Shown here: piece by piece, positions 15,429 to 63,924 of the stretch | Numbering within the stretch: position 1 is the first letter of the stretch | How the letters are laid out: each line of letters starts with the position of its first letter | Source: a bacterium ADurb.Bin243 | GTDB lineage: Bacteria; Muiribacteriota; UBA9980 | Assembly: GCA_002069765.1 (NCBI GenBank) | Contig: MWBZ01000012.1 | Span: forward strand, 8,436 to 72,435 | Reading direction: 5' to 3' | Length of the DNA stretch: 64,000 nt | Program-made: the position numbers and the translations under genes | Notes under the pieces: generated by a model | Told to the model about the DNA's origin: nothing | What the model saw: only the letters and a program-made list of their open reading frames with translations | Databases searched by the model: none

Positions 15429-15831
15429 ACTTTACCTTTTCGAGGCTCTCTCCGCGGGCGCCTGATTTGATATCATAAACGTCTTTTTTTTGCGTCGACG
15501 AAGGTATTATAATCCACGTGTCGTTTTTCTCGGTTACCGGATCGATCGGAAGGGCCGTGATATATTTTTTGTCCACCAGTTCCTGAAGGCTTTCCGGATA
15601 CCTTTCATGGTCCTTATAGAACCTGGATATGGTGTCGCGCACGCCGCGAAGGTTGCTTTTTAAAACGCTTTCCTTCGTTTTTCTGGCGCTCTCGCCGATC
15701 AAAGGCTGGCTCGCCGCGAATAAAATGCTTATGATTATTACGACGGCAAGCACTTCTATAAGCGTAAAGGCTTTGATTTTTCGTAAACCGTAAAATTTAT
15801 TTGCTTTAAGCGTACATGATGCAAAAGGCAT
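15415..15831 (-). CDS. Prepilin-type N-terminal cleavage/methylation domain protein (type IV pilin / T2SS pseudopilin)
   Basis: KAFTLIEVLAVVIIISIL class III signal peptide, with Ala rather than Gly at -1; C-terminal SLQELVDKKYITALPIDPVT. Confidence 0.75.
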   Translation of the reverse strand: MPFASCTLKANKFYGLRKIKAFTLIEVLAVVIIISILFAASQPLIGESARKTKESVLKSNLRGVRDTISRFYKDHERYPESLQELVDKKYITALPIDPVTEKNDTWIIIPSSTQKKDVYDIKSGARGESLEKVKYENL

Positions 15832-19376: not shown

Positions 19377-19443
19377 TCGTTTTCGCTTACAAATATTTTA
19401 AACCGCCCCGGTAAAAATCACTTATAATTTTTAAATTTTATTT

Positions 19444-19836
19444 TCAGTATTTTTCATAGCTGACGCCTTTAATATCGGTTCCCGCGGGCGGCGAGCCGTT
19501 TTTTCCGCGCAGGAATACCGAGCCGTTTGCGGCGTCGTAGCCGATATCGCCGGAAGCGTTGGCTGCGTCCCATTTTAAATACGCGTTCTTAAGCTGCGCG
19601 CCTTCCATGGCCGATATGCTCGGCGGAAAGCGGCCGTTTTCAATGTAATAGCGGCCGATCGCGCCCCTCAGTATGGAAAGATTATTTTTAACGGCCGCGT
19701 CTTTTGCAAGCCCGGCGCGCGAAGAAACGTTTATAACGGCTATCGACGACAGCATGGAAATTATCGCGATAACCGCCAGAAGCTCGATGAGCGAAAAACC
19801 CTTCAAGCTTTTTTTATTATGAGCGAAAATCCTCAT
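19444..19836 (-). CDS. Major pseudopilin / type IV pilin (GspG-like)
   Basis: Canonical KGFSLIELLAVIAIISML prepilin peptidase site (G at -1, E at +5). Confidence 0.8.
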   Translation of the reverse strand: MRIFAHNKKSLKGFSLIELLAVIAIISMLSSIAVINVSSRAGLAKDAAVKNNLSILRGAIGRYYIENGRFPPSISAMEGAQLKNAYLKWDAANASGDIGYDAANGSVFLRGKNGSPPAGTDIKGVSYEKY

Positions 19837-43814: not shown

Positions 43815-44516
43815 CTATACGCCTTTTTTATCGGCGGGCCAGATATACTTGTGCATTTGAAGCTGAAATCTAGCTTTAACACCGTCTTGCAGCATCCATT
43901 TTATTATTTTTTCCGGACGAATTTTTCCGTACACGGCCGAAAACAAAACGCCGCACTTTTCGGCTAGGCTATATTCAAATATAATATTTTTGCAATATTC
44001 GTAATCGGCCCGGTCGCCTATAACGAACTTTATTTCATCGACGGATTTTAAATGATTGAAGTTGTCGAAAATCATCATACCGCTGCTGCCCGAAGAAGGA
44101 GTTTTGACGTCCATTATTATTACCGCCTGATCGTTTAATCCTTTTATGGAAATCGAACCAGAAGTTTCGATCAGCAGGCGCGGCTCTATGGCATCAGCCC
44201 GGCGGCCCTTTTTCTTATTATTCAAATACTCCACCAGCAGGTCAACCAGCTGCGGCGCGCCTTTTTGCATAAGCGGCTCGCCTCCGGTGAGTTCGATGAT
44301 GTGCGGGTCGAGAGCGTCTACTTTAGATATTATTTCTCCGGCGGTAAGGTATCTGCCGTACTTATACGCATAAACCGTGTCGCAATAAGCGCAGCGAAGA
44401 TTGCAGCCGCTGAGGCGCACGAACGCGCATGCGAGCCCGGCGTAAGAAGACTCGCCCTGAACGCTTTTAAATATTTCATTGACCTTGAATTTTAAAATCG
44501 AAGAATCGTTCGGCAT
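43815..44516 (-). CDS. queE: 7-carboxy-7-deazaguanine synthase QueE (radical SAM)
   Basis: Motif CNLRCAYCDT plus the QueE-type GGEPL motif; start chosen at ATG 44516 (the ORF track extends to a TTG at 44537). Confidence 0.85.
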   Translation of the reverse strand: MPNDSSILKFKVNEIFKSVQGESSYAGLACAFVRLSGCNLRCAYCDTVYAYKYGRYLTAGEIISKVDALDPHIIELTGGEPLMQKGAPQLVDLLVEYLNNKKKGRRADAIEPRLLIETSGSISIKGLNDQAVIIMDVKTPSSGSSGMMIFDNFNHLKSVDEIKFVIGDRADYEYCKNIIFEYSLAEKCGVLFSAVYGKIRPEKIIKWMLQDGVKARFQLQMHKYIWPADKKGV

Positions 44517-44525
44517 AACAAAAAT

Positions 44526-44555
44526 ATTATAACACAACGAACGTTTTATTTACAA
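44526..44555 (-). promoter_or_regulatory. Putative promoter TTGTAA-N18-TATAAT (minus strand) ending 9 nt before the queE ATG
   Basis: Reverse complement of 44550-44555 is TTGTAA and of 44526-44531 is TATAAT; there is no Shine-Dalgarno sequence between the -10 element and the ATG. Confidence 0.35.
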
Positions 44556-47700: not shown

Positions 47701-48082
47701 AATACCGGATTCTCTCGTTATAAATATTTCCTGCGAAGAGGAATTTCTCAACAGCGTCCCTCAGATGACCCGCAAAGTTTTCCGCGACAGCGCGCCGCGC
47801 CGCATCGACGACGACGACGACGGTTACGGCTCGCGCGATTTGAGCACCGGCGCCGTGCATAAGCCGCATTCGGCGGCGTCAGAAGATGAACCGGGCGAAA
47901 ACCTCGCAGAGTTCGGCGGCGTCACTTTCGCCAAAAGCGACAGGGTAAAGCATTCGATGTGGGGAATCGGCGTCGTGCTCGAAGCCACGGGTCGCGGCGA
48001 CGAATGCCTCGTAAAAGTCAATTTTATGAACGTGGGCGAAAAGAAGCTGCTGCTCAAATATGCGCCGCTCGACAAAATATAA
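44741..48082 (+). CDS. pcrA: ATP-dependent DNA helicase PcrA/UvrD carrying an in-frame intein in helicase motif III
   Basis: Walker A AGAGTGKT, motif Ia, DEYQD, and motif III split as VVGDDDQ / (intein) / SIYSWRGAD; C-terminal UvrD domains. The 1113-aa length compares with about 750 aa for intein-free homologs. Confidence 0.9.
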   Translation: MDIFESLNPMQYEAATLTDGPLIIFAGAGTGKTKVITHRIAYLIKKKNVNPKNILAITFTNKAADEMRTRVDALLPGNGRDVWVSTFHKICLFILRNHAESLGLTKNFIIYDDGDQNALIKECLKELDVNEDNIKPRMILSKISLAKSNMISEDDYLLNESSHIDSIIEKIYKLYNKKLRQNNAVDFDDIIFLTASLLKNNDSVLKTYSTRFKYILVDEYQDINYSQYMFVKTLSNIHKNICVVGDDDQCVCANSQVLTPNGYQKIENIMEGSQIVSCIGHDGVSIAQTSKVMRRPYSGQAIKITLENQKTLTVTPNHLLFAKYNSSASLSYVYMMYRKAFGYKIGVCQGLSLFTESRKYDLEEGDKIWILKICKNPKDASYFESLYSTRYGIPTLHFTARSLGATLEQDKIKKIYSEVDTFVRAEVLMRDLMIYEEHPHYVSVVKTRSLSSPKVLSLTMFGANERSRENGWYFHRMNLDINAQNIGVLRGDTSVIKKTGSLDKWKVEAVREDYSELVSFAKTISGLDELLLVEKAQLTSKAPFYQMPASHVHENMTLAFFNHKEKKIEELLVSEIEVIDYEGFVYDLSVNHLHNFIVDGFVVHNSIYSWRGADVRSMLNFERDYPNSQVVKLEQNYRSTKNILLAASEVIKNNVTRREKTLWTQGESGEKITVYEAINEQAEVVFAINQMRQVIYREDKKYSDFAFFYRTNAQSRVIEETLIKEGIPYKMVGAIRFYQRKEIKDVIAYLRLILNTSDNLSLLRILNVPRRGIGEKSISSLVAFANEKKISIFDALAKVAEIEDLPLKAKNTTLNFVDLINELRADCAKLNVTELTKNVLDKTGYLRELKVINSSQTLDRSKNINELLSVTEAYDQEKSGGGLSGFLERVTLISDLDEIDEKQNSVTLMTFHAAKGLEFPVVFMLGMEEKLFPHEHSSDENYDIAEERRLCYVGMTRARERLYIIHTRQRRIFGSVFTNPVSRFVSEIPDSLVINISCEEEFLNSVPQMTRKVFRDSAPRRIDDDDDGYGSRDLSTGAVHKPHSAASEDEPGENLAEFGGVTFAKSDRVKHSMWGIGVVLEATGRGDECLVKVNFMNVGEKKLLLKYAPLDKI
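45488..46555 (+). mobile_element. Intein (356 aa, Hint domain blocks A, B, F, G) inserted between Q249 and S of helicase motif III
   Basis: Begins CVCANSQVLTPNG (block A), has TLTVTPNHLLF (block B, T-x-x-H), and ends GFVYDLSVNHLHNFIVDGFVVHN followed by +1 Ser. The central about 200 aa contains no clear LAGLIDADG or HNH motif. Confidence 0.85.
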
Positions 48083-52096: not shown

Positions 52097-53335
52097 TCAA
52101 ACGATTTCTCCGAATTTAAGCCTGACGATCGTTTCAGCGGCTTTTTCGCCCAGGCCGAGAAATCTCACAAGCTTGAGCTTCTGCCAGAACCTTTTCTGGC
52201 GGGAGCTTTTAATTTCTTCGCTCACCTTTCCGCCGAGCGTTTCGCTCGGAGCGCCGGGGCGGCCTTCATATTTAAGCGCCTGGTATAAAGATATATCGGC
52301 CCTGCCGATAAGCTCGTAAGTTTTGATGAAATCTTCGCGCGTTTCGCCCGGAAAGCCTACCATTACGATAGAGCTGACGCTTTTCAGGCCGGTTTCGCGC
52401 ACCATATAGTTGACGGCCGCCACAGCTTCGCTTATTTTATAGCGGCGGCGCATGGAATCGAGTATTTTTTGCGAGCCCGACTGAAGAGGCGCGCAGAAAG
52501 ACGTAACGCGGCCTGTCTTAAAAATAGCCGCCAGCGCGTCGAAGTGCTTGATAAGCCATACCGGCTCTATAAAGCGGATATTGACTTTGAAATCTTCGCC
52601 GGCCTTCAAAACTTCGTTTAAAAGCTCGGGCAGGCTCGAATTTATATCGGCCCCGTAGCAGCCCATATCGTCGCCCGCGAATGAAATTTCACGATAACCG
52701 AGCTTTACGGCGTCTTTTACCTGCGATATTATTACGTCCGGTTGAACGCTTTTTACGGAGCCTCTCGCGCGCTTTATGGCGCAGTAGGAGCATTCGCCGA
52801 GACAGCCGCTGGCGCCCCTTATCAAATACCACTCGGGCACGGGGACCGTATCCAGAAAATCCGGAATTTTAATGAAAGGCATTATCTTATTTATGGCGCC
52901 GAATAATTTTTTGAGCTTTATGCCCGCCATGAACATTTTATTTTCGCGATATTCGGACACGCCCACGATATTGGCGCTTATTTTATCAAGCGGCACGGCC
53001 GAAGGAAATATTTTTTCGATATCGGATATCTGCGAAGGCGCAAGCGCCGTGACGTCTCCGATAGATTGGAAAAGCGAAGGGTTTATCTTTGAAAGGCAGC
53101 CGCTCACAATAACCATGGCGCCGCTTTTTCGGCCTTCGAGCGCCTTACGGATTTTTTTGACGGCGTCGGTTTCATATTCCTGATTGAACGCGCAGGTGGA
53201 AACGAGCACCGTATCGGCCTGTTTTATATCGGCCGTCTCCGCGTGGCCGGCTTTTAAAAGATACCCCCTTATAAGGGCGATATCTAAAACAAGTTCGGTG
53301 CAGGGATGGGCTGAATTGATAATATGAAAAATCAT
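52097..53335 (-). CDS. MiaB-like methylthiotransferase-family radical SAM protein lacking a TRAM domain, paralog 1
   Basis: N-terminal MTTase domain with three spaced Cys (PCTE, STCAF, SGCL); radical SAM motif GCLGECSYCAI; VGFPGETRED motif; no C-terminal TRAM domain. Confidence 0.7.
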   Translation of the reverse strand: MIFHIINSAHPCTELVLDIALIRGYLLKAGHAETADIKQADTVLVSTCAFNQEYETDAVKKIRKALEGRKSGAMVIVSGCLSKINPSLFQSIGDVTALAPSQISDIEKIFPSAVPLDKISANIVGVSEYRENKMFMAGIKLKKLFGAINKIMPFIKIPDFLDTVPVPEWYLIRGASGCLGECSYCAIKRARGSVKSVQPDVIISQVKDAVKLGYREISFAGDDMGCYGADINSSLPELLNEVLKAGEDFKVNIRFIEPVWLIKHFDALAAIFKTGRVTSFCAPLQSGSQKILDSMRRRYKISEAVAAVNYMVRETGLKSVSSIVMVGFPGETREDFIKTYELIGRADISLYQALKYEGRPGAPSETLGGKVSEEIKSSRQKRFWQKLKLVRFLGLGEKAAETIVRLKFGEIV

Positions 53336-53343
53336 GCGGTTCC

Positions 53344-54546
53344 TTATACTCCGAATATCAAATTTTTAAGGTGCTTTTTTACCACGGCGCGGTGCATGAC
53401 GGCATACCGGCGCTCTATTTCGGCTTGCGGCACCTGGTTTTCAAATTCGGCGGCCTTAGTGTTGGGACGGCGTTCGTATTTAAAGACCATATACATCTCA
53501 TGGCGCACTTCGTCGACCAGCCTCATGGACTGGTAAAAGTCTTCCTCGGTTTCTCCTGGAAATCCGACTATGATATTGGTGCTGATCATTGCCACGCGGG
53601 TCTTTTCTATTATGTAATTGACGGTTTCCTTTATCTGCTCGAAGGTATAGCGGCGGTTCATGGATTTGAGGATCCTGTTGGAGCCCGACTGGGCGGGAGC
53701 GCAAAAAGCCTTTATCTTACCGGTTTTAAAAGCCGGAATTAGCCGGTCTTTTAATTTGTAAAGCCAGTAAGGGTCTATAAAGCGCAGATTTATTTTAAAA
53801 TCGCCGCCCAGGCATACGAGTTCATTCAGAAGATCGGCGAGATTCGTTTTTATATCCACGCCGTATCCGCCGAGATCTTCTCCGGTGAGGGCGATTTCGC
53901 GGTACCCTATCTCTATGCCTTTTTTAGCCTCTGCGACTATCGTTTTTATGGGGTCGCTTTTGAGCGGGCCGTGGGCGTTTTTTATGGCGCAATATGAGCA
54001 GTTTCCGGTACAGCCCATGGCGGCCCTTACGCAATACCATTTTTCTGAAGGCACCGTGAATAAAATCTTAGGCACGCGGACGAAAGGGAGAAAGCTTAAT
54101 TTTTCGAACCATTTGCGGGCGCGGAAAAACCTGCTGATTTTAGGATCGGTATCGTATTCGCGTTCGGAAACGAAGTGGTTTTCGAAATTCACGATTTTAT
54201 TTTCAAAATTCATTATTTCGTCGAACTTCGCTATATTCGAAGTCGGGACGCTCCGGCCGTTGAAAACGCTTTTCAGGCGCTCTTTATTGATGTCGGGCAG
54301 GCAGCCGGCCACCACGAGTTCGCATCCGGCTTTTTTTTCGCGCCCCATTTTTTCTATAACGCCGATTTCATAATCTTCCTGCTCTTTTGAAAAACCGCAT
54401 GTGGAAACGATTATTACGTCGGCGTCCAGGTGCGAGCTGCATATTTCCCAGCCGTTGGCCGAATACCAGCGCTTGATGGCGTTCATATTCATCGCGTTTT
54501 CCGTGCAGGGGTGCTTGGTTGAATGTATATAAGCTTTTTTAGTCAT
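53344..54546 (-). CDS. MiaB-like methylthiotransferase-family radical SAM protein lacking a TRAM domain, paralog 2
   Basis: Same architecture: PCTE, STCGF, AGCL; GCTGNCSYCAI; VGFPGETEED. Confidence 0.7.
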   Translation of the reverse strand: MTKKAYIHSTKHPCTENAMNMNAIKRWYSANGWEICSSHLDADVIIVSTCGFSKEQEDYEIGVIEKMGREKKAGCELVVAGCLPDINKERLKSVFNGRSVPTSNIAKFDEIMNFENKIVNFENHFVSEREYDTDPKISRFFRARKWFEKLSFLPFVRVPKILFTVPSEKWYCVRAAMGCTGNCSYCAIKNAHGPLKSDPIKTIVAEAKKGIEIGYREIALTGEDLGGYGVDIKTNLADLLNELVCLGGDFKINLRFIDPYWLYKLKDRLIPAFKTGKIKAFCAPAQSGSNRILKSMNRRYTFEQIKETVNYIIEKTRVAMISTNIIVGFPGETEEDFYQSMRLVDEVRHEMYMVFKYERRPNTKAAEFENQVPQAEIERRYAVMHRAVVKKHLKNLIFGV

Positions 54547-55865
54547 TAAAATTCTCCAAATTTATTGAATACGACGGAGCTGTTGCCGCCGGAAAAGCCG
54601 CATGAGTTCGAGATGGCTGCTTTGATAAGCATTTTACGGGCCCCGCCGGTGCAGTAATCCAGATCGCAGGCCGGGTCGGGCGTTTTAAGGTTCGCCGTCG
54701 GGTGGCATATGTCGTTTTTAACGCTGAGAGCCGTTACTACGGCCTCTATGGCGCCGGCGGCGGCCACCGAATGTCCGATCATGGATTTAGTCGCGCTGAC
54801 CGCGATATTTTTGCAATGTTCGCCGAAAAGCGATTTAATGGCGCGCGTCTCGCTGGCGTCGTTGAGCCGCGTGGACGTGGCGTGCGGGTTGACGTATGAA
54901 AAATCCGTAAGCGGTATGCCCGAATCTTTTATAGCCCGCTCCATAGCCAGTTTCATCATGCCTCCGTCGGGGCGGCACGCCGTGATTTTTTCGGCGTCGG
55001 AGCTCGACGCATAACCGGAAATCTCGCATATAATATTTGCGCCGCGCGCCAGCGCGTGTTCGAGCTCTTCAATTATTATAACAGCGCCGCCTTCGCCGAG
55101 AACGAAACCGTCGCGGTTAAGATCGAACGGCCGCGAGGCCGAAGGCGCTTCTTCGTTATTTGTGGAAAGCGCGCCCAGAAGGTTGAAGCCCGTCAGGATA
55201 TAGGCGTCTATCATTTCATCGCAGGAACCGCTCACCGCCACGTCTATCTCGCCCGAACGTATGCGCCTTAAAGCCTCTCCGATAGCGTAGTTAGACGATG
55301 CGCAAGCGTTGGAAGTGGCCATTACCGGCCCTTTTATTTTATAACGAGCCGCCAGATAGCCGGGGATAAAAAACGGAAATTTATTGCGGATTTCGTCTTT
55401 AGTTAAAAGCTCGAGGCAGTTATTCGCGAAAAGGCCGTAATCTACTTTAAAATCAGGGCCGCCTGAACGCTTGAATATTTCATAGGCCTTTTCGAAAGAT
55501 ATCCGGCTCGTTTCTATTCCCATAAAAATTCCGCATGAAAATTTCCGGAAATCTTCTATGCCGGAGGCGGCCGCCGCCTCATCAAAAGCGCTGAGCATAA
55601 AAGCGAGCTTGCGCGAAAAATATTTATGCGAATCGGGGTATTTATCCATAAGTTCCGCCGCCTGCGAAACCCGCGCCCCTATATGAACGGCGAATCCGTG
55701 CCGCTTGAATTTTTCGAGCTCTCCCACGGCGCTTTTTCCGGCGCAAAGCCCGCGGAATGTTTCATCGGCCCCTATGCCGAGAGGCGTAACCATTCCGGCT
55801 CCTGTTATTACGGCCCGCCTTCTGCCGCTTTGAATTTTTTTAATTTTAGCGTTTTCTCCGTTCAT
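54546..55865 (-). CDS. Beta-ketoacyl-ACP synthase (FabF/KAS II-like)
   Basis: 439 aa; active-site Cys context (ATSNACASSNYAIG), two His motifs (NPHATST; MIGHSVAAAG), C-terminal GFSGGNSSV. Confidence 0.8.
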   Translation of the reverse strand: MNGENAKIKKIQSGRRRAVITGAGMVTPLGIGADETFRGLCAGKSAVGELEKFKRHGFAVHIGARVSQAAELMDKYPDSHKYFSRKLAFMLSAFDEAAAASGIEDFRKFSCGIFMGIETSRISFEKAYEIFKRSGGPDFKVDYGLFANNCLELLTKDEIRNKFPFFIPGYLAARYKIKGPVMATSNACASSNYAIGEALRRIRSGEIDVAVSGSCDEMIDAYILTGFNLLGALSTNNEEAPSASRPFDLNRDGFVLGEGGAVIIIEELEHALARGANIICEISGYASSSDAEKITACRPDGGMMKLAMERAIKDSGIPLTDFSYVNPHATSTRLNDASETRAIKSLFGEHCKNIAVSATKSMIGHSVAAAGAIEAVVTALSVKNDICHPTANLKTPDPACDLDYCTGGARKMLIKAAISNSCGFSGGNSSVVFNKFGEF

Positions 55866-57079
55866 ATTTTATCCACCAGTTTCCCGCCGGTCAAAAACCA
55901 TGTGCCTTTTTTTTCGGCGGCAGATTCGGGCACTTTATTTACCACCATCGCCGGGTCGGGATAAAGCGTGACGTCGTTCGGGATCATTCTTCCCGGCGCT
56001 ATTATCAGCCCGGCCGCTATTTTCGTCCTGTGGCCTATTATAGAGCCCGCGAAACGCAGGCCGGTGTCTTTGACTCCGTCTGAGCACATTACCGATATCG
56101 TTTTTCCGTCCAGCCGGTAGTCGGACGGTATCGAGTTCATCACCGCGGAATCGTAACCGAAGCAGGAAAATTGATACGGCCCGCTGATAAGGAACGCGCG
56201 AGGATAAACCACCGAAAAGAAAATGACGTTGTTATTGGCTATATATGCCTTTTCGCCCACCACGCTGAATTTTACGGCGCTATGGTCGTCTATGTATGCT
56301 CCGCCGCCTATGACGGAAAACCGCACGACCGCGTACGCGCCGACTACGGCGCCGGATTTGATCACGCTGCCTTCTATGACGGCCGTCGGATGAACTTTAG
56401 CGCCTTTTTCTATAACCGAAAGCGCGCCGAGTATTTTAGCTTCGCTTATGGAGCGGGCGCGGAAAAGAACGCCAAGTTTTGCGGCTGCGCCGAGCTTGCG
56501 GAAGCGGGCCAGGCGCGCAAAATTGGCCGCCATGTTGACCATGGCTATATGAATGGGCTCGCAAACCCTCACGACGGCCTTTGAAGTGACGCAAAACTTG
56601 AAATGGTCTTTTCCTATCATGTGATCGGGAAAATGGCCCGATTCGTAAAATTCGTCGGGATTTATAACCGCGTTTTTCGCGCGGCTCTCTTCGAAAACCG
56701 GCGCTTTGGAATAATAAAGCGGATACTCCATAACCGATTCGTTTTCTTTGAGCCTCTGCAGTATGGCGATCTGTTTTGTAAAAAGGGTTTTTTCCAGCGC
56801 GGCGCGCACGAGCGGCGCGTCGGCCGCCATGGCGCGTTTTAAAAATTCGGCTAAAAATTCAGGCGTAAAGAAAATATCGTCGGTTAAAACAAGCGCGCCG
56901 GAGAGGTTTTCATCTTTGAGCGCGGCGCTTTCCAGGCGGACGGATTCAAAACCGGCCTCCGCAAGAACGCGCGCCTGATAATCTCGGAGCCTTTCGTTCA
57001 AAATTAAAATATCGCCGCAATGATCATTAAAAGGCGGTATTACAGTATTAGTTTTTATAATGAATGCTTTCATTTTCAT
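55862..57079 (-). CDS. Left-handed beta-helix (hexapeptide-repeat) protein with N-terminal nucleotidyltransferase-like region
   Basis: C-terminal half consists of hexapeptide repeats (VIEGSVIKSGAVVGAYAVVRFSVIGGGAYIDDHSAV...); function not assignable. Confidence 0.5.
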   Translation of the reverse strand: MKMKAFIIKTNTVIPPFNDHCGDILILNERLRDYQARVLAEAGFESVRLESAALKDENLSGALVLTDDIFFTPEFLAEFLKRAMAADAPLVRAALEKTLFTKQIAILQRLKENESVMEYPLYYSKAPVFEESRAKNAVINPDEFYESGHFPDHMIGKDHFKFCVTSKAVVRVCEPIHIAMVNMAANFARLARFRKLGAAAKLGVLFRARSISEAKILGALSVIEKGAKVHPTAVIEGSVIKSGAVVGAYAVVRFSVIGGGAYIDDHSAVKFSVVGEKAYIANNNVIFFSVVYPRAFLISGPYQFSCFGYDSAVMNSIPSDYRLDGKTISVMCSDGVKDTGLRFAGSIIGHRTKIAAGLIIAPGRMIPNDVTLYPDPAMVVNKVPESAAEKKGTWFLTGGKLVDKI

Positions 57080-57170
57080 AGTATTACAATTATAACATTT
57101 TTAACGGCCGTTTTCAACACGGTATAAAATATCGTTATGATTTATTAAACGGATTTCGAATCCCGGCCAC

Positions 57171-57199
57171 TTGTTTTTAAACGATTAATGTGATAATAT
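57171..57199 (+). promoter_or_regulatory. Putative promoter TTGTTT-N17-TAATAT upstream of the BMP-family gene
   Basis: -35 at 57171-57176, -10 at 57194-57199, AAGGA ribosome-binding site at about 57220; lies in the 154-bp divergent control region shared with the minus-strand LbH-fabF operon. Confidence 0.35.
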
Positions 57200-57233
57200 A
57201 AATTAACATTTTAAAAAAAGGACGGACAGTACA

Positions 57234-58313
57234 ATGAAAAAATTCGTTTCATCTTTATTATTGTTTCTCGCTTTAACGGTTTCCCTATCTTTCAGTCCTC
57301 TTCAAGCGGCGGAAATTTTAGCCGAATCTTCCGTAAGCGTTATATTTTTCATGCCGATAGGCAACTCCCTCGACCCGTTCATCCAGGTAAGCGAAAAAGG
57401 CATACAGGTATCCGCCGCTCTTTTCCCCAACCTTAAAATCGCAAGGGTTTATCCTTATTCCGACGATTACGTTCACGAATATATTAAATTCGCCGCCATG
57501 CGCGGGCACGATTATATAATCGGAATCGGCTCCTACTACGCCGACGCGTTCGATAAAATAGCCGATGCGTTTCCGGGCAAAAATTTTATCGTGGTGGACG
57601 GAAAGTCAAATAAAAAGAATGTCAAGTCGATAGTGTTCAACAACCGCGAAGCCGGATATCTCGCGGGGGCCGTCGCCGGCATCCTTTCCGAAACCGGAAA
57701 AATAGGGTTCATAGGCGGCAAAGAAACGGGCATCATCTTCGATTTCGAAAAAGGATTCGCCGAAGGCGTAAAAAAACAGAATAAAAAAGCCGAAATTTCC
57801 GTAAAATATATTTCAAAAACCAATGAAGGCTACACCAATCAAAAAGCCGGATTCGACATAGCCGACGCCATGTATAAAAGCGGAACCGATATAGTGTTCG
57901 CAGCGGCCGGCGCATCCGGACTCGGTTCTATCGACGCCGCGCGCCTGAATAAAAAAATGATCATCGGAGTCGACGCCGACCAGGACGAAGTAGCCCGCGG
58001 CATAGTTATGACTTCTATAATAAAAAGGCTCGATACCTCTATAGTCAATCTTCTTCAATCTATCGCGACCAATAAATACGACTCTAAAGAAACGGTTTAC
58101 AACGTAGGCAACGTCGGTTTCGCCCTTTCAAATTTCACTTTTTCAAAAAATAAAATTAAAAAAGCCGCCCTCGATAAAATTTACGACGAACTTTTCCAGA
58201 TGAAGAAAAAATATGATTACTCGGAAATATCCAAGTTGAAAAACCCCGACGAAGAAACCGAAAAAAAATCGAAGCGCAAAGAATACAAGCCGGGACAGCT
58301 TTTCAGAAAATAA
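57234..58313 (+). CDS. BMP-family (PnrA/Med-like) periplasmic substrate-binding protein
   Basis: Signal peptide; motifs typical of basic membrane protein family SBPs (FIVVDG...NVKSIVFNNREAGYLAGAVAG, IGFIGG). Confidence 0.6.
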   Translation: MKKFVSSLLLFLALTVSLSFSPLQAAEILAESSVSVIFFMPIGNSLDPFIQVSEKGIQVSAALFPNLKIARVYPYSDDYVHEYIKFAAMRGHDYIIGIGSYYADAFDKIADAFPGKNFIVVDGKSNKKNVKSIVFNNREAGYLAGAVAGILSETGKIGFIGGKETGIIFDFEKGFAEGVKKQNKKAEISVKYISKTNEGYTNQKAGFDIADAMYKSGTDIVFAAAGASGLGSIDAARLNKKMIIGVDADQDEVARGIVMTSIIKRLDTSIVNLLQSIATNKYDSKETVYNVGNVGFALSNFTFSKNKIKKAALDKIYDELFQMKKKYDYSEISKLKNPDEETEKKSKRKEYKPGQLFRK

Positions 58314-58355
58314 GCCGCCGTTTCCGATGCGCTGAAATCAAGCGGGGCCTTTAAA

Positions 58356-59408
58356 ATGAAATTTTCAAACAATCTAATTTTAAAATCTAATTCAATCACC
58401 GCGCGCTCCGGCGTCCATGCCGAAAATATGGAAGCGCTGGCGCGCGGCTTGAATTTCTGGGTTGACGCTCCGTTGAATATCGACCGCTTTACGCTGGACA
58501 GGCACGGAAAAATATCCGACTCCTTAACGGCGGAGCTTCTGGACTCTTTCGACATCAAACCAAAAAACAAGAAGTATTTCGAACGCTCTTCGACGCTTCT
58601 TTTCAGCGTAATAAAAGACTACGGGCCGTTGCTCAAAAGCATAGACGGCTCGGAAGTCGGGCTCTATTGCGGCGTCGGGCCTGCCAACGCGCGCATAGAC
58701 GATTTCAGGGAATGGGCCGCCGGCATCGAAGGCGCCGATGAATTTTATCCGTCTATGATGGCGAGTTCGGTTATAAAGCTTCTGCCGAATATCGTGATGT
58801 CCAACCTTTCTATCAACACCGGCTGGCGGGGAGAAAACGCTATTTTCTCCTCCTGCGCCTCCGCTTTCTTCGACGCTTTAAATTCGCTTCTCACCGCCTT
58901 TGAAAACGGCTCTTCACGGATCGCCGCCGCCGGTTCGGTTTCCGCCCCTTTCGAATACTTCAATATGGATTCATACAGCCGGTTTTTCGGCGCCGATTTT
59001 TTCGATCCGCCATTATGCGAAACCGCTTCGTCGATGCTTTTATGCACTCCCGATTTTTACGCCGGGCGCCTTGAAAATACAGGTATGGAGCCCGAAGGCC
59101 GCATCCTTTCGATCGATTCTTATAAAACTCCAGAAGGACTTTTTAAACGCTCCGATATCAAGAATTTTGAAAAACTGGCGCGAGATTTTTTAGAATCTGA
59201 AAATTACGATTTTACCGATACGCTTTATTTTAAAACGCACCCCGCCGCCTGCGGTAATTTTTTGACAGGCGGCGAGCCCGTTAACGTTATGAGCCTTGTT
59301 TATTCGCTGAACGCCGCCGGCGAAAAGGGCTTCGCCGTTAGCGTAAATATCGATTACTTCGGCAACCTTCACGCCGTAAAAGCCGGCGGCCGGGCTTCGC
59401 AGAAATAA
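58356..59408 (+). CDS. Beta-ketoacyl synthase-like protein, short/divergent (possible KS partner or chain-length-factor-like)
   Basis: 350 aa; region PNIVMSNLSINTGWRGENAIFSSCASAFFDALNSLLTAFENGSSRIAAAGSVSAPFE aligns by eye to the KS active-site segment (PNM-AG-VS---GL-GP--T--TACSSS--AI--A---I--G--D--LAGG-E) with the nucleophile Cys retained; the C-terminal His-His region is not evident. Confidence 0.45.
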   Translation: MKFSNNLILKSNSITARSGVHAENMEALARGLNFWVDAPLNIDRFTLDRHGKISDSLTAELLDSFDIKPKNKKYFERSSTLLFSVIKDYGPLLKSIDGSEVGLYCGVGPANARIDDFREWAAGIEGADEFYPSMMASSVIKLLPNIVMSNLSINTGWRGENAIFSSCASAFFDALNSLLTAFENGSSRIAAAGSVSAPFEYFNMDSYSRFFGADFFDPPLCETASSMLLCTPDFYAGRLENTGMEPEGRILSIDSYKTPEGLFKRSDIKNFEKLARDFLESENYDFTDTLYFKTHPAACGNFLTGGEPVNVMSLVYSLNAAGEKGFAVSVNIDYFGNLHAVKAGGRASQK

Positions 59409-59440
59409 TCCCGGCGGCGCGCCGGACACGAGGAAAAAAC

Positions 59441-60886
59441 ATGCCGGTTTCAAAAGTTTTTAATAAGATAGACAGAATAGCTCTTATAGAGCCGGCCGTT
59501 CGCTGCGAATGCCTTACCAGCGATATATTCGCTCAGATCAGGGCATCTCTGCCGTTTCTCGCCGGGGCGCTTTCTGCCGCGGGATACGGCTGCGAGATTT
59601 ACTGCGAAGAACTTATCGAATTACAGCCGCATATACCCAAAATAGCTTCTTCTTTTCCGGCCGCCGGAATATCGCTTACCATAAACACCGTCCGGAGGGC
59701 CATCGAAATAGCGCTAAGCCTGAAAAAATACAATCCTGAAATAATAATCATTTTCGGCGGATCCCTCGCGGGCAGCTTCGCCGGCGAAGTTTTAGCGGCG
59801 GGCGATTACTGCCTCAACGGGCGCGCCGAAACCGCCCTTCCAATGCTTTTGAACTCGCTGAACTCAGGCGCGGATATCGGCGATGTCCCAAATTTAATCC
59901 GCATATCGGAAGGCAAAATATTCAAAAACAATGTGCCCTCGCCTGCGGCCGATTTTAAATCGGATTATTCCGGCGTGCTTAATTTCGGAAATTTTTCAGA
60001 GAAGCGCAATATTTTAAACTTTTATAAACCTCCGCTTTATTCGGTTTTCTCTTCGACGGGGTGCGTAAACAATTGCCGTTTCTGCGTCAGCGAAAAAAAA
60101 TATATCAAACGCGAACCGGAAAACGTCATATCCGACTTTAAAAATATTATTCTCAGGCACAAAGGGTATCTTCCGCCACGCTTTATGCTGGTGGACGACT
60201 GCGCTTTCGGCGACATGGGTTACCTTAAAAATCTTCTTGCGCGTCTCGCATTTTTAAGAAAAAAAAGTAATTTTTCGCTCATGATGCAGTTTCACGTACA
60301 TCCTCTTTTAAAAGATCCGCAGCTCCCCGAACTTTTTAACGAAGCCGGAGTAACGACGCTTCTCATGGGCTTTGAATCAGCTTCCGACGTTTCTCTTAGC
60401 GGCGAACGCAAAGGTACGACAGTAAGCGAAAATATAAAAGCCATCGAAATCTGTAGAAAACACGGCATTACGCCTTACGGTTATTTCGTCGCCGGCTTCG
60501 ATTCCGATTCCATCGAAAGCGTTAAAGAAATTTTCGACTTCATTATACGGTACTCGCTGGCGGCGCAGGTACTTCCGGTAGGAGTTATGAAAAATTCCGC
60601 CGCCGCCCCGAAAACAGACGGCCATGAAACGCTCGATCCTTATTCTTTCGGCGCCTCCATGAAAGTCTCGCATATTCCCCAAAATATGCAGCCGTACAGG
60701 CTTCAGGAAATTTTAATCGAGGGTTACGACCGGATTTATTCTTTAAAGCGAACGGCATTAATGAAGACTTTCCGGGAAACGGTTTACAATCTTTTTTTCA
60801 GCCTTTGCTATCGCAAATGGCGTCCCGGACTTCAAAAACATCTTAATTACCTGCGCCTTCTCGAACGTTTTTCAAAGCGGTCTTAA
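59441..60886 (+). CDS. Radical SAM protein with N-terminal B12-binding-like domain
   Basis: Motif GCVNNCRFCVSE; N-terminal region IALIEPAV...LTINTV resembles the Rossmann-like cobalamin-binding domain. Confidence 0.6.
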   Translation: MPVSKVFNKIDRIALIEPAVRCECLTSDIFAQIRASLPFLAGALSAAGYGCEIYCEELIELQPHIPKIASSFPAAGISLTINTVRRAIEIALSLKKYNPEIIIIFGGSLAGSFAGEVLAAGDYCLNGRAETALPMLLNSLNSGADIGDVPNLIRISEGKIFKNNVPSPAADFKSDYSGVLNFGNFSEKRNILNFYKPPLYSVFSSTGCVNNCRFCVSEKKYIKREPENVISDFKNIILRHKGYLPPRFMLVDDCAFGDMGYLKNLLARLAFLRKKSNFSLMMQFHVHPLLKDPQLPELFNEAGVTTLLMGFESASDVSLSGERKGTTVSENIKAIEICRKHGITPYGYFVAGFDSDSIESVKEIFDFIIRYSLAAQVLPVGVMKNSAAAPKTDGHETLDPYSFGASMKVSHIPQNMQPYRLQEILIEGYDRIYSLKRTALMKTFRETVYNLFFSLCYRKWRPGLQKHLNYLRLLERFSKRS

Positions 60887-60915
60887 GCATTTTTCCAATT
60901 ATTTCTTTTTCTCAA

Positions 60916-60944
60916 TTGACAACCGGCATTTATTTATATATAAT
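60916..60944 (+). promoter_or_regulatory. Consensus sigma70 promoter TTGACA-N17-TATAAT
   Basis: Exact TTGACA at 60916-60921, 17-nt spacer, exact TATAAT at 60939-60944; AGGAGGG Shine-Dalgarno at about 60988 and ATG at 60999. Confidence 0.6.
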
Positions 60945-60998
60945 TAAACCGATTAATTTAAAATATATTAAATAATCACAAAATAACAGGAGGGCTTT

Positions 60999-62129
60999 AT
61001 GGTAAAAAAATCGTTCCACGCAATGTTATGCTCGCTATTAATGGTTTTTATCTGCCTTGTCCCGGCTTTCGCCGCTAACGATGCGGCTCCGGTTTCCGAA
61101 GATAAAGTGTTATTTTTCGTCAATAATCCGGCCGAGATTTCATTCGTTGAAATGGGCAAAATAATGTCATACGTTGAAAATTACTATCGCAACGTAGGCC
61201 TCATAAACAGCCAGGACGTAGAGAAATTCTTCCAGGCTCTCAGAAACCACGGCGCGCCCAACGCCGGCAGTTCAAAAGCATATGTGGCCCTGGTTATCCA
61301 GGACGCCTCGCATCCCGACAATACTTCTTATTCGCCCTGCGGAGTGCTGGCCGTTCGCGGACAGTTCGACAAAGCCAAAGTTATCGACATCCTCAAACGC
61401 CATTATGCCGAACATACCGCTAAAACTTCACACGAAAACCATTTCGCAGAAACCAAAAGCGGCGACGTAACCGTCCACCGTTTCGCGCTTCCCGAAAAAG
61501 ACCGCGAACTCACGATAATCAGCTTCGGCGAATATTGCCTTTTTTCGTCGGCCAAAATCGGCGACACCAGGCTTTTAAAAGAAACCGCAAAATATCTCCA
61601 GGACAAAAGCTTCAAAGCGAATTTAAACTCCGAAACCAACGTCCGCTTTCTCGTAAAAGCCGACGACATGGATAAACAGAAGCTCAATAAAATTATAAAC
61701 GACAAATACGAAGACCTGAAGCAGAACAAAGTCCTTTTAAAAAGAAAAGGGCTCAAAGGCTTTTTCACCAGACGTTTCGCCGATCATAAGGTAAAATTCA
61801 TAAACAACGCGATCAGCGAATTAAACGACGTAGATTTTACCGTTTACAGAATGAGAAACGAAAACGCCAACATGAAAAGAGTTTCGGTCGTTTCAACGTT
61901 CGCAAACGAAGACACGGCGCGCAAAGTTAAAAAGAACATATTAAACCATCTTAACGACGCGATAAAAGGCGCATCTCATCCCGAAGACAAACTCGGGCTT
62001 TCAAACGTAAAAATAATAGCCGACGGCAACAAATGCTCCATAGAAACCGAGCTTGGAACCGAAGACGAGCAGCTGCAGTGCTTCGCCCTTATTTCCTCAT
62101 ATGTAGCAAGATCTATTATCAGAAAGTAA
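60999..62129 (+). CDS. Secreted hypothetical protein (signal peptide, no recognised domain)
   Basis: 376 aa; N-terminal signal peptide MVKKSFHAMLCSLLMVFICLVPAFAAND; driven by a consensus promoter. Confidence 0.5.
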   Translation: MVKKSFHAMLCSLLMVFICLVPAFAANDAAPVSEDKVLFFVNNPAEISFVEMGKIMSYVENYYRNVGLINSQDVEKFFQALRNHGAPNAGSSKAYVALVIQDASHPDNTSYSPCGVLAVRGQFDKAKVIDILKRHYAEHTAKTSHENHFAETKSGDVTVHRFALPEKDRELTIISFGEYCLFSSAKIGDTRLLKETAKYLQDKSFKANLNSETNVRFLVKADDMDKQKLNKIINDKYEDLKQNKVLLKRKGLKGFFTRRFADHKVKFINNAISELNDVDFTVYRMRNENANMKRVSVVSTFANEDTARKVKKNILNHLNDAIKGASHPEDKLGLSNVKIIADGNKCSIETELGTEDEQLQCFALISSYVARSIIRK

Positions 62130-62199
62130 TTTAAACCTGATTCAATAAACGGCGCCGCATGCGCGTTTTCTATTACGGGCGGCGGCGCCTGATAAAAAA

Positions 62200-62682
62200 A
62201 TGAGATTTTATTTCGTAGACAAAATTACAGAATTTAAAAAGGGCTCCTCGATAGCCGGAATCAAAAACGTATCGATGACGGAGCCCTTTTTTACTTTTCA
62301 TTTTCAGCGCTATCCGGTCATGCCGGGCGTCCTGATTATAGAATCGCTTGCGCAGCTCGCCGGGCTCATGATCGAAATGTCCTTCGAGCCCGGCTGCTAT
62401 AAAAAAGCCATTTTATCCATCGTAGATAAAACCAAAATCAAATTCATGGCCCGCCCCGGCGACAGGATAGACATGAAAGCCTCGCTCGAAAGCCTTTCCG
62501 AAAAGGGCGCGGTATGCGAAACTTCCGCTGCCGTCGACGGCAGGCTTCTCACCGAAACCCGCCTTACCTTCGCGCTCATGGACGCCGGGGGCGTTTACGA
62601 CAAATATTTAGAGGACGAGCGGCTGGCTTTGATCGACACATTGATGCGCGATTTCAATTCGCGCGGCGAAAAGCGCGAATAA
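62200..62682 (+). CDS. FabZ/FabA-like 3-hydroxyacyl-ACP dehydratase (hotdog fold)
   Basis: 160 aa; FxxHFxxxPVMPGVLIIESLAQ catalytic His motif characteristic of FabZ. Confidence 0.75.
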   Translation: MRFYFVDKITEFKKGSSIAGIKNVSMTEPFFTFHFQRYPVMPGVLIIESLAQLAGLMIEMSFEPGCYKKAILSIVDKTKIKFMARPGDRIDMKASLESLSEKGAVCETSAAVDGRLLTETRLTFALMDAGGVYDKYLEDERLALIDTLMRDFNSRGEKRE

Positions 62683-62740
62683 GTTTTATATAATTTTTTC
62701 ATCATCATAAGAATACGCGCGGTTATTTCGAGGAAAGTTA

Positions 62741-63307
62741 ATGATAAAAACCGTCTTCGACGAAAAGCTAAATTTATTAAATGAAATTCCCGCCGGGGCA
62801 TCGATAGGCATAATCGCATGCGCCGACTGCGCCGCAGCATTTAAAACGGCCGATACCAGGCGTATCGAACAGGTAAAAAAAATTTTTGGCGGCCGCAACG
62901 AAACGCTGTTCACTCTTTCCGTAAATTCACCCTGCGACCGCAGGGTGCTGGCTCAATTCGCGGCCGCGGTAAGAGGCTTCGATAAAGCCGATTGCTATAT
63001 AATACTCGCATGCGAAGCCGGCAGGCGGTCGGCGGCCGAATATATAGCGCAGCGAAGAAAAAGCGGCGAAGACTTCAAAATAATATCGCCCGTTAAAACG
63101 GTTTCATACGTTTCGTTAGACTGCTCCGGCGTTTCCCATGAAGCGTGCGTGTTTTGCGGCGAGTGCGTCCGCTCTTCGTCCGCCGCGGCGGCATGCCCGG
63201 TGGCGGCATGCCCGATAAACAAGAAAGACGGGCCGTGCCAGAGCCGCGCGAACGATTTCTGCGTCATAGAAGGCTTCGAGTCAAGGCGGTGCTCATGGCT
63301 TTATTAA
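62741..63307 (+). CDS. MetV-like Cys-rich protein (MTHFR C-terminal-like domain with CPxxxxDGPC motif)
   Basis: 188 aa with 17 Cys; motif ACPINKKDGPCQ resembles the CPKxxxNGPCGG signature of the small subunit paired with MetF in acetogens. This is a low-certainty call. Confidence 0.35.
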   Translation: MIKTVFDEKLNLLNEIPAGASIGIIACADCAAAFKTADTRRIEQVKKIFGGRNETLFTLSVNSPCDRRVLAQFAAAVRGFDKADCYIILACEAGRRSAAEYIAQRRKSGEDFKIISPVKTVSYVSLDCSGVSHEACVFCGECVRSSSAAAACPVAACPINKKDGPCQSRANDFCVIEGFESRRCSWLY

Positions 63308-63924
63308 ATTTTCCGGCTATTATAATCAAAACGCCTTTAAAATTAATGGATATAAAGTTTCTGGCTTCTTTAATAAATAAGTGCGGCGCCGCCACGGTTT
63401 TTTTAAACGGCGCCGGCGGCCTTAACTCTTTTATCGTAAAAAACGCCCTCGACTGCGAATTAAAGCGCGGCCTCGATTACGGCCTGATTATAGATTTTCG
63501 CGGCAGAAGCGAATCCGCGCTCGATTCAGACGTCATAAGCGCGGCTGAAATGAATTTTAAGTTTATCTTTCTTGATGAACCGGGCCCTAAAAGCAAGCCG
63601 GCTCTCTGCGGCATTTCAAGTTACGGCTTCATAAGCGGCATCAAAAAAAAGTACGCGGCTAAATTTAAAATAATAGTGCAAAACTGTTTTTTGCATAAAA
63701 ACGACGAAGAGCTGCTGGCTATGCAGTTAGAAAGCGGCGCCGATCTCGCCGCGGTCCGGCCGGGCCCGGCCCGCCCCGAATTCCTCGCCAAGTATAAAGA
63801 CCGTGCAGCGTTTTTAAAAAGCTTGACGGCAGCAGAGCTCGACGGACCGGGTTTTCGCGGATGCGAAACCGGGGCGCTCTACGAACTCGACTATTCGTCC
63901 GCCGCGCAGGAAGGCTTGATTTAA
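63295..63924 (+). CDS. Hypothetical protein, possibly a short methylenetetrahydrofolate reductase-like (MetF-like) protein
   Basis: 209 aa from the ATG at 63295 (AAGGCGG ribosome-binding site 6 nt upstream), overlapping the MetV-like gene by 13 nt; weak resemblance (VFLNGAGG) to MetF and genomic pairing with the MetV-like gene. Confidence 0.25.
   Translation: MALLNFPAIIIKTPLKLMDIKFLASLINKCGAATVFLNGAGGLNSFIVKNALDCELKRGLDYGLIIDFRGRSESALDSDVISAAEMNFKFIFLDEPGPKSKPALCGISSYGFISGIKKKYAAKFKIIVQNCFLHKNDEELLAMQLESGADLAAVRPGPARPEFLAKYKDRAAFLKSLTAAELDGPGFRGCETGALYELDYSSAAQEGLI

Follow-up and report, generated by a model that had tools for sequence, protein, structure and literature searches.

A conserved FAS II-like gene cluster with radical SAM and corrinoid-protein genes in uncultured Wallbacteria and Riflebacteria

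Introduction

What does a bacterium make with a ketosynthase and a dehydratase of fatty acid type that are encoded among radical S-adenosylmethionine (radical SAM) enzymes? The question is raised by a divergent gene cluster of bacterium ADurb.Bin243, which we analysed in a stretch of 64,000 nucleotides (the window) of contig MWBZ01000012.1 (assembly GCA_002069765.1, positions 8,436 to 72,435). Its genes are lettered A to P: A to K lie within the window, L is cut by the window end and M to P lie beyond it, on a stretch of the source contig (L001; coordinates are window coordinates minus 52199) that reaches 8.7 kb beyond the window.

Here we report that the cluster is real and conserved across uncultured Wallbacteria and Riflebacteria. 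It is an undescribed variant within a broader type, the cluster that resembles type II synthesis of fatty acids (FAS II) and has radical SAM tailoring, and is distinguished by TRAM-less methylthiotransferase paralogues, a GlmU-like protein with a left-handed beta-helix (LbH) and a recruited corrinoid methyl-transfer module. We estimate a probability of roughly 0.6 that the region is the larger part of a dedicated O2-independent pathway in which an acyl chain is built on a carrier protein and decorated by radical chemistry. Judging from genomic context, the product is probably a sulfur- and methyl-decorated lipid-like molecule; the separate chemical steps are much less certain than this general reading. 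A first-pass annotation, made from the letters of the window, could name no described cluster that the genes match, and the searchable literature and NCBIfam gave us no description of this gene combination either.

Results

The cluster is conserved as a unit across lineages

Genes D-C-B-A lie on the minus strand and the genes from E onward on the plus strand. The first-pass annotation had listed 11 open reading frames (ORFs) here; their coordinates, the overlaps of 4 nt (D/C) and 1 nt (C/B) and the 154-bp divergent gap were all reproduced, and the Pfam-type domain calls made for A to J were confirmed by Pfam and NCBIfam. The end of the last ORF, K, at 63924 was borne out as well, but its start is likelier the ATG at 63295 than the GTG at 63145; the ATG gives 209 aa, the length in the public gene call. 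The plus-strand operon runs on past 63924 without a gap, with the next gene starting at 63925 and five more after it on the source contig. The extent first given to the cluster was incomplete in this respect: the genes L and M, the CpaM gene N and the fused HgcAB-like gene O form a module beyond the window, and the FabZ-like gene I travels with it.

Conservation was assessed by synteny in 176 loci, on which the cluster proteins were located by tblastn and ORF mapping. The loci came from contig look-ups by protein, a GTDB-wide scan with the D alignment and a metagenome scan with the O alignment, and include 80 D-family loci and 80 metagenomic N-O loci (L097-L176). The genes had been taken for one cluster in the first-pass annotation, and synteny supports this: the cluster is conserved as a unit in Wallbacteria, in Riflebacteria and in an unclassified lineage. 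Genes A to O are kept in the same divergent layout in L007 and L013, except that G is missing from L007 and the short contig of L013 breaks off within B and L. D-C-B-A is kept in L014, L015 and L017. The unclassified lineage (L011; 44-67% identity) carries on one strand E-F-D-C-B-A and, after it, a second pair resembling a ketosynthase (KS) and a chain-length factor (CLF). On the other strand, a divergent operon encodes a large B12-binding radical SAM protein (617 aa), a short-chain dehydrogenase/reductase (SDR) ketoreductase, an elongated acyl carrier protein (ACP; 132 aa) and an amidohydrolase. This large B12-binding radical SAM protein scores 76.7 versus 360 on TIGR04072, where, as throughout, the first number gives the bits obtained and the second the curated NCBIfam cut-off (for Pfam, the gathering score).

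In Riflebacteria (L019-L024) the order is J-K-L-M-N-O-D-ACP-ketoreductase-large B12-binding radical SAM gene, whole or in part depending on the contig recovered. L020 shows it on one strand through the B12-binding radical SAM gene, and L022 and L024 continue on the same strand with B-A-G, so that L024 has all of J to G on one strand. Partial blocks also recur: L095 has H-I-J-K-L-M-N-O, L093 has H-I, a J-K fusion and L, and L101 has I-N-O. Eight Bacteroidota and Bdellovibrionota loci (L027, L029, L031, L034, L035, L038, L040 and L069) group a FabZ-like gene, a gene for a 342-aa partner protein, a KS, a ketoreductase, an elongated ACP and D; in the first five of these a gene like the alpha subunit of indolepyruvate ferredoxin oxidoreductase (IOR) lies further on, and the beta subunit was detected in three of the five. 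An NCBIfam scan of the Bacteroidota-type cluster proteins returned no curated system name. The same genes thus recur in varied orders across phyla, which we take as the signature of one functional system. Orthologues of the cluster itself are restricted to Wallbacteria- and Riflebacteria-like lineages, under source names that include bacterium ADurb.Bin243 and Candidatus Wallbacteria.

Three of the loci hold further genes. In L009 (1-19400), E-F and H-I-J-K are split by five inserted genes, among them a LanM-like lanthipeptide synthetase (1094 aa) and a GNAT protein, and a nonribosomal peptide synthetase (NRPS) with a reductase domain stands upstream in place of D-C-B-A. L029 (12170-14896 and 17205-19707) encodes a 908-aa fusion of a fatty-acid desaturase with an RND/HpnN-like part, an AmmeMemoRadiSam-type radical SAM protein (290.7 versus 220) and a pyridoxal phosphate enzyme of Cys/Met metabolism; this Bacteroidota version suggests O2-dependent tailoring instead of the radical SAM/corrinoid set. 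In the Myxococcales locus L046 (662-13852), D-family genes stand beside two KS genes, one of them of 726 aa with an N-terminal extension, and a FabZ-like gene, together with a GT2 glycosyltransferase, a 1376-aa protein without a Pfam match and two methyltransferases.

A predicted ketosynthase, its truncated partner and a dehydratase

Gene C (54546-55865, minus strand) encodes a FabF-like beta-ketoacyl synthase of 439 aa. Both the N and the C domain of Pfam ketoacyl-synt are present, Cys188, His328 and His365 are intact, and the best PDB matches are FabF structures (~270 bits). We predict C to be an intact decarboxylating ketosynthase. It stays below the fabF equivalog TIGR03150 (370.3 versus 493.75) and below PRK07314/NF005589 (358.3 versus 387).

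F (58356-59408, plus strand; 350 aa) can hardly be recognised as a KS. Pfam gives a weak match to the ketoacyl-synt N domain (25 versus 20.8), matches of the F profile to the PDB are marginal only, and the family comprises 11 clusters among 5.8 billion proteins. In hhalign, F and the KS family align along 323 columns at Prob 87.5% and E 3.6e-6; F also matches, at 82%, the 342-aa partner protein of L029, which itself matches the KS family at 97% and whose gene shares 4 nt with the start of the KS gene. In the F alignment (11 relatives), Cys, Pro or Ser stands where a KS has its nucleophile, and neither of the two catalytic His residues is conserved. A KS fold whose catalytic residues are not conserved points to a truncated, catalytically dead, CLF-like protein, which fits the KS/CLF-like pairing of C and F proposed by the first-pass annotation. 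By likeness to the act KS/CLF and to anammox amxFabF2/amxFabFmut, we infer that C and F may form a KS/CLF-type heterodimer.

I (62200-62682, plus strand; 160 aa) is a FabZ/ApeI-like hotdog protein. It has the Pfam FabA/FabZ domain with His34 and Glu48 intact, carries a precomputed match to the ApeI-like family PF22818, and is predicted to be an intact FabZ-type dehydratase. It misses the cut-offs of both FabZ equivalogs (NF000582, 106.9 versus 113; TIGR01750, 104.4 versus 155.15). Its best PDB matches are anammox amxFabZ (74.9 bits) and, with a margin of 4-5 bits, ordinary FabZ (70.4). In relatives I travels with J-K, and an identical copy is present on the 88.6-kb contig JAKJHQ010000015.1 of GCA_022703765.1 and on anaerobic-digester metagenome contigs.

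The ACP-like protein, ketoreductase, large B12-binding radical SAM protein and amidohydrolase of the relatives were sought in the window and L001, and the search returned B12-binding radical SAM paralogues at 8.7-14.8 kb alone. The absence of acpP, fabD, fabG and fabH, which the first-pass annotation had pointed out, holds for 52-64 kb and for the next 8.7 kb; its suggestion that an ACP gene might lie just past the window end was not borne out in the 8.7 kb beyond. As neither ACP nor ketoreductase is encoded in the window and these 8.7 kb, carrier-protein chemistry in this genome is deduced from the relatives. The B12-binding paralogues are four tandem genes on the minus strand (8685-14791; 541, 530, 514 and 513 aa) whose products are 22-29% identical to the large B12-binding radical SAM protein that relatives encode beside ACP and ketoreductase. 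They are flanked by genes for a 402-aa protein without a Pfam match, a solute-binding protein and sensor kinases.

Two methylthiotransferase-like paralogues without TRAM and a B12-type radical SAM protein

A (52097-53335; 412 aa) and B (53344-54546; 400 aa), both on the minus strand, belong to the MiaB/RimO superfamily, have the Pfam domains UPF0004 and Radical_SAM, and share 34.5% identity. Both [4Fe-4S] motifs of methylthiotransferases are present in each protein, with CxxxCxxC at 178-185 and N-terminal cysteines 12/48/80 in A, and CxxxCxxC at 179-186 and cysteines 14/50/82 in B. TRAM is the RNA-binding module of methylthiotransferases. Pfam did not detect it in either protein; the matches stop at model position ~357-360 of 429 and leave 11-27 residues. 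On the generic subfamily model B reaches 250.2 versus 251, on the equivalogs 223.9 versus 314.7 (TIGR01578), 202 versus 357, 183 versus 357 and 173 versus 355, with A scoring lower; both are under every MiaB, MtaB, RimO and e-MtaB cut-off. Among the specific equivalogs, both do best on TIGR01578, the t6A-type methylthiotransferase model, and the nearest solved structure to B is RimO (128 bits). The B-A pair is retained in Wallbacteria, in L011 and in Riflebacteria. Taken together, A and B are predicted to be paralogous methylthiotransferase-type radical SAM enzymes and not tRNA-modification genes.

G (59441-60886, plus strand; 481 aa) resembles class B radical SAM proteins, those with a B12-binding domain. 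It has a Pfam Radical_SAM domain with CxxxCxxC at residue 208, a B12-binding match below threshold (26.5 versus 32.1), and best NCBIfam matches that are all B12-binding radical SAM families; searches against PDB sequences gave marginal or no matches. On the ladderane-type model TIGR04072 it scores 40.4 versus 360. Orthologues of G come after B-A in the Riflebacteria loci L022 and L024.

A putative one-carbon and corrinoid module lies downstream

J (62741-63307, plus strand; 188 aa, 14 of them Cys) matches DUF5981 (PF12225, 34.9 versus 23), which upholds the earlier MetV-like assignment; against PDB sequences it gave marginal or no matches. The MetF-like assignment of K (63295-63924, plus strand; 209 aa) found no such support in sequence: neither Pfam nor NCBIfam gave a match at E<=0.01, MetF included, and the profile matched no PDB sequence. 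What speaks for it is a medium-confidence barrel model and domain fusions. The model is a small TIM barrel, a (beta/alpha)8 fold (predicted local distance difference test, pLDDT, 74), with methylenetetrahydrofolate reductase (MTHFR) as the top fold match and other TIM barrels at near-equal scores. An exhaustive profile search recovered 17 relatives in 1.84 billion representatives, three of which (P0114, P0117 and P0122, all distant) fuse the J and K domains, that is DUF5981 and K, and these fusions lend independent support to a MetV/MetF-like unit.

L begins at 63925, and its first 25 codons occupy the window to its end at 64000 (plus strand). The 651-aa protein has the IOR-alpha-like architecture of a thiamine pyrophosphate (TPP) domain, a POR domain and 2x[4Fe-4S], at 395.7 versus 650.9 on IOR_alpha; M is IOR-beta-like (64.8 versus 205.8). 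N passes the cut-off of the CpaM methyltransferase (NF043040, 209 versus 180) and O that of the HgcAB-like fusion (NF043039, 323.6 versus 285), O failing the HgcA equivalog (NF040863, 158.1 versus 275). Four hydrophobic segments, the cap-helix motif NVWCAS (NVWCA from residue 75, Cys78) and a pair of CxxCxxCxxxC motifs mark O as a predicted corrinoid protein with Cys ligation and a membrane anchor, fused to a 2x[4Fe-4S] ferredoxin. P (L001 16033-19938, ~4.0-7.9 kb past the window end; 1301 aa) combines an N-terminal domain like the radical SAM/SPASM peptide maturases (~170 bits, under the cut-offs) with a single transmembrane segment and, at the C terminus, a beta-propeller. In the Wallbacteria-type loci L001, L007 and L098 it comes after O; in Riflebacteria it is absent.

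N and O form a near-universal cassette: they stand side by side in most of the 80 metagenomic loci, and in L175 (9212-10834) they are fused into one 540-aa protein. Since N-O is widespread without the other cluster genes, it appears to have been recruited here and is not diagnostic of the cluster. None of the other N-O loci examined showed it embedded in a biosynthetic operon along with MetV/MetF-like and IOR-like genes. The neighbours of the fused gene in L175 encode a patatin-like phospholipase, an F420H2-quinone-reductase-like protein, a TetR regulator and an ABC-2 transporter.

A GlmU-like protein marks a wider cluster family

D (55862-57079, minus strand) has Pfam LbH/Hexapep repeats. An AF2 model (28 sequences, pLDDT 92.3) joins a nucleotidyltransferase-like N domain to a C-terminal left-handed beta-helix, and its top Foldseek matches are ST0452 (a bifunctional sugar-1-phosphate nucleotidylyltransferase/acetyltransferase), GlmU, GMPPA/B and eIF2B subunits. 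The model thus predicts a GlmU/ST0452-like two-domain fold. By eye, the N terminus shows no canonical GxGTR motif. D is the signature gene of a wider cluster family: an elongated ACP adjoins it in 15 of the 80 D-family loci, in several phyla, KS/FabZ-like genes stand beside it in 13 and IOR-like genes in 14. We propose that D may be an acyl-ACP-dependent off-loading acyltransferase.

Two proteins appear to be exported. E (57234-58313, plus strand) is a Bmp/PnrA-family solute-binding protein (Pfam Bmp, 149 bits; 63 versus 400 on the sole NCBIfam Bmp model matched) with a signal-like N terminus. It is an orphan, without ABC partner genes, and has F adjacent in every case. H (60999-62129, plus strand; 376 aa) has an N-terminal signal-like hydrophobic segment and no match in Pfam or the PDB. 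It heads the H-I-J-K-L-M-N-O block and is kept in L007, L009, L013, L095 and L098.

Promoters and borders

The divergent promoter region between D and E (57080-57233, 154 bp) holds a promoter-like site on the minus strand, TTGAAA-17-TATAAT from 57117 to 57089 (11/12 matches, TG-extended), and an extended -10 on the plus strand, TGTGATAAT at 57189-57197. Both blocks are kept in L007, L013 and L014 (proteins 78-96% identical), which makes four loci with this one. A perfect 12/12 sigma-70 consensus (TTGACA-17-TATAAT) at 60916-60944 on the plus strand, within the 112 bp that precede H, points to possible transcription of H to O apart from E-F-G. The whole window was also compared with Rfam, with cobalamin and SAM riboswitches in mind, and matched no family.

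On the left, A converges on a POT transporter gene, which RelA/SpoT and an intein-containing PcrA precede; these unrelated housekeeping genes set the border of the cluster. The PcrA/UvrD helicase (44741-48082, plus strand; 1113 aa) has Intein_splicing between its N- and C-terminal helicase domains. Upstream of it, a stand-alone 240-aa radical SAM protein (43815-44537, minus strand) is positionally unrelated to the cluster. Elsewhere in the window, small minus-strand ORFs at 14964-15831 and 18921-19836 have, by eye, type IV pilin-like N-termini (FTLIEVL / FSLIELL), and a 1007-aa hybrid sensor kinase is encoded among them.

Comparison with known systems

In architecture, anammox Cluster I comes nearest to the cluster; the logic is shared and membership fails. 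Anammox Cluster I (kuste3603-3608), a putative ladderane cluster, comprises amxACP, amxFabZ, an amxFabF2 and amxFabFmut heterodimer, a phytoene-dehydrogenase homologue and a B12-binding radical SAM protein (bioRxiv 10.64898/2026.05.19.726425; PMC10139942). Both clusters set FAS II-like genes apart from housekeeping fatty acid synthesis, combine an active with an inactive KS, a variant FabZ and a B12-binding radical SAM protein, belong to an anaerobic host and have a product whose chemistry is unproven. However, F is truncated at 350 aa, barely a KS and far more divergent than amxFabFmut, which is a full-length FabF with a mutated triad; G is not orthologous to the ladderane-type radical SAM protein, and the phylum is another. 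Neither a phytoene-dehydrogenase homologue nor a dedicated ACP, both of which anammox Cluster I has, is encoded in the window or L001. The present cluster adds A/B, the GlmU-like LbH protein, the IOR-like pair, the MetV/MetF-like pair and the CpaM/HgcAB-like genes.

Type II polyketide synthase and aryl-polyene systems (actinorhodin KS/CLF, ApeO/ApeC, ishigamide Iga11/12, cispentacin AmcF/AmcG) likewise pair an active KS with a non-catalytic KS-fold partner. A hotdog dehydratase, to which the ApeI-like match of I corresponds, and the discrete ACP and ketoreductase of the relatives are shared features too. The cluster has no cyclase or aromatase, and radical SAM/corrinoid tailoring is foreign to those systems; C scores 193 versus 325 on the AmcF model and I 33 versus 140 on AmcE. 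Aryl-polyene clusters of E. coli and Xenorhabdus carry accessory genes for an adenylating loader, a thioesterase, a LolA-like carrier, a GT2 protein and an MMPL exporter. None of these five was found among the 16 genes A-P.

A and B share with MiaB, MtaB and RimO the UPF0004 auxiliary-cluster domain, the radical SAM core and all Cys ligands, and differ from them in having no TRAM and in falling under all equivalog cut-offs. LipS1/LipS2 is a two-enzyme lipoyl synthase (PMC9585515). It resembles A/B as a conserved paralogous pair of sulfur-inserting-type radical SAM proteins, here beside acyl-chain enzymes, but belongs to the biotin-synthase/LipA branch, whereas A/B belong to the methylthiotransferase branch.

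O is like HgcAB and fused HgcAB-like proteins in its NVWCA cap-helix, transmembrane segments and 2x[4Fe-4S] tail, and both O and N pass curated cut-offs; in failing the HgcA equivalog O is unlike HgcA. No function has been demonstrated for the fused HgcAB-like forms, and the one of P. furiosus does not methylate Hg (PMC10083202). J carries the DUF5981 (MetV) domain of the MetVF-type MTHFR of acetogens. K falls short of MetF by ~80 residues, and no sequence similarity between the two was detectable. L/M share the TPP, POR and 2x[4Fe-4S] architecture of IorA/IorB but miss the equivalog cut-offs. On these membership tests, the readings of the region as housekeeping FAS II, tRNA methylthiotransferase, ladderane or aryl-polyene genes were rejected.

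Discussion

A proposed pathway of acyl-chain assembly and radical decoration

In the O2-independent pathway that we favour, L/M would oxidatively decarboxylate a 2-oxoacid to give an acyl-CoA primer, low-potential electrons (reduced ferredoxin), or both. C and F, as a KS/CLF-like heterodimer, would elongate the primer on an elongated ACP (131-158 aa). This ACP and an SDR ketoreductase adjoin D in sister lineages and must, for the pathway to operate in this genome, be encoded elsewhere in it. The ketoreductase and I would act on the beta-carbon, I dehydrating the 3-hydroxyacyl intermediate. A and B could then in succession place sulfur or methylthio groups on unactivated carbons, comparable to LipS1/LipS2 on the octanoyl chain, and G might methylate or rearrange the chain. 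J-K, N and O would generate methyl groups and form a corrinoid methyl-transfer chain at the membrane that serves the tailoring. D would move the finished acyl group from the ACP to an acceptor in the manner of LpxA/LpxD-type LbH enzymes, and E and H may handle the acceptor or product outside the cytoplasm. The most specific version of this scheme, in which the substrate of the TRAM-less A/B is an acyl chain bound to ACP or lipid and O, fed by J-K, L/M and CpaM, supplies or transfers methyl groups to that product, is tentative, and we think it doubtful as a whole.

Several points weigh against such a pathway. C and F belong to separate, divergent operons here. ACP, ketoreductase, enoyl reductase, acyltransferase and thioesterase genes were not found in the window or the next 8.7 kb. 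The fold model makes only a weak case for K as an MTHFR. To our knowledge, the substrates of methylthiotransferases are so far tRNA and ribosomal protein S12, with no lipids among them. Finally, most of the 80 metagenomic N-O loci have no FAS-like neighbours, and N-O could work independently.

Alternative explanations

This last point also bears on the alternative that survives best, that two independent neighbours lie side by side: a FAS-like/methylthiotransferase unit (D-C-B-A and E-F) and a one-carbon/corrinoid redox unit (H-O) with its own hotdog protein. The patatin-like lipase, TetR regulator and ABC-2 transporter next to N-O in L175 would be in keeping with it, as would the absence of a visible KS from the 8.5-kb contig of L095, which has H-O, and of J-O within 10 kb of E-F-D-C-B-A in L011. 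We nevertheless consider it unlikely. In Riflebacteria J-K-L-M-N-O abuts D-ACP-ketoreductase on the same strand, in an order unlike that of Wallbacteria, which would hardly arise by chance, and in Bacteroidota and Bdellovibrionota D and KS have the FabZ-like gene and the IOR-like pair on their flanks. L009 divides the genes along another line, with E-F beside H-I-J-K and not beside D-C-B-A, and the shared 154-bp divergent promoter region is conserved in four loci.

A second alternative would make the product an acylated nucleoside or nucleotide-linked metabolite: D would acylate a nucleotide-sugar-like acceptor, A/B would methylthiolate an adenine-type ring and E would bind the nucleoside outside the cell. 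MiaB and MtaB methylthiolate tRNA A37. The fold of D is that of sugar-1-phosphate nucleotidylyltransferase/acetyltransferases, the best specific equivalog of A/B is the t6A-type TIGR01578, the loss of TRAM removes the RNA-binding module, and the Bmp family, to which the invariably F-linked E belongs, is described as PnrA-like. We nonetheless hold this reading to be improbable: by eye D has no GxGTR nucleotide-binding motif, E is far under the cut-off of its single NCBIfam Bmp model, and the cluster contains no gene of nucleoside biosynthesis or activation.

It is very improbable that the cluster modifies a peptide or protein, as a cluster for a peptide made by ribosomes and modified after translation (RiPP) would, with the radical SAM enzymes, P included, acting in a RimO-like way (on Asp) and the KS-like proteins as accessories. 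The likeness of P to SPASM peptide maturases, the position of RimO as closest solved relative of B, and the LanM-like gene and NRPS interleaved with cluster genes in L009 point in this direction. The short gaps between genes, however, show no evident ORF for a precursor peptide, P is missing from the Riflebacteria versions, and the constant partners are KS, dehydratase, ACP and ketoreductase.

A housekeeping fatty-acid locus beside tRNA/ribosome methylthiotransferase genes is largely refuted. Ordinary FabF is the nearest solved relative of C, I has the FabZ catalytic residues and A/B fall in the MiaB/RimO superfamily, all of which such a locus would show. Against this, the equivalog cut-offs of FabF, FabZ, MiaB, MtaB, RimO and IOR are all missed and TRAM is lacking, which together speak for a non-housekeeping role. 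The first-pass annotation had likewise set the region apart from housekeeping FAS II, and C, I, A and B all fall under curated cut-offs, with acpP, fabD, fabG and fabH lacking from 52-64 kb and the next 8.7 kb; F, H and K come from extremely rare families, and the orthologues are confined to Wallbacteria/Riflebacteria-like lineages.

Membership in a described type of specialised-lipid cluster, anammox ladderane Cluster I or an aryl-polyene cluster, is scarcely credible: the KS with a dead KS, the FabZ variant and the B12-binding radical SAM protein as in anammox Cluster I, amxFabZ as top PDB match of I and the precomputed ApeI-like match recall these types, but the ladderane, tetraether and aryl-polyene systems brought up in the first-pass annotation fail on the TIGR04072 score of G (40 versus 360), the phytoene-dehydrogenase homologue and ACP missing from the window and L001, the 4-5-bit amxFabZ margin, the aryl-polyene accessory genes missing among A-P and an organism that is not anammox.

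Implications

If the most specific version of the scheme holds, A and B would define a third substrate class of methylthiotransferases, after tRNA and ribosomal protein S12, and O would provide the first physiological, non-mercury function for the mercury-methylase protein family. The cluster would also be a third case with a different chemistry, sulfur insertion. The native function of HgcA-type corrinoid proteins, especially the fused HgcAB-like ones, is a long-standing open question (PMC10083202), and the place of O in a defined biosynthetic operon with candidate methyl- and electron-supply partners makes the native HgcA-type function testable in vitro. Environmental surveys based on hgcA could take such genes for those of mercury methylators.

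D and the elongated ACP mark a wider, uncharacterised family of FAS-like clusters in Bacteroidota, Bdellovibrionota, Riflebacteria and Wallbacteria that has no NCBIfam name. For Wallbacteria and Riflebacteria, the most specific version would imply a new sulfur-containing, methyl-branched lipid, and a distinctive lipid product of any kind could be a biomarker for these uncultured phyla of anaerobic digesters and groundwater.

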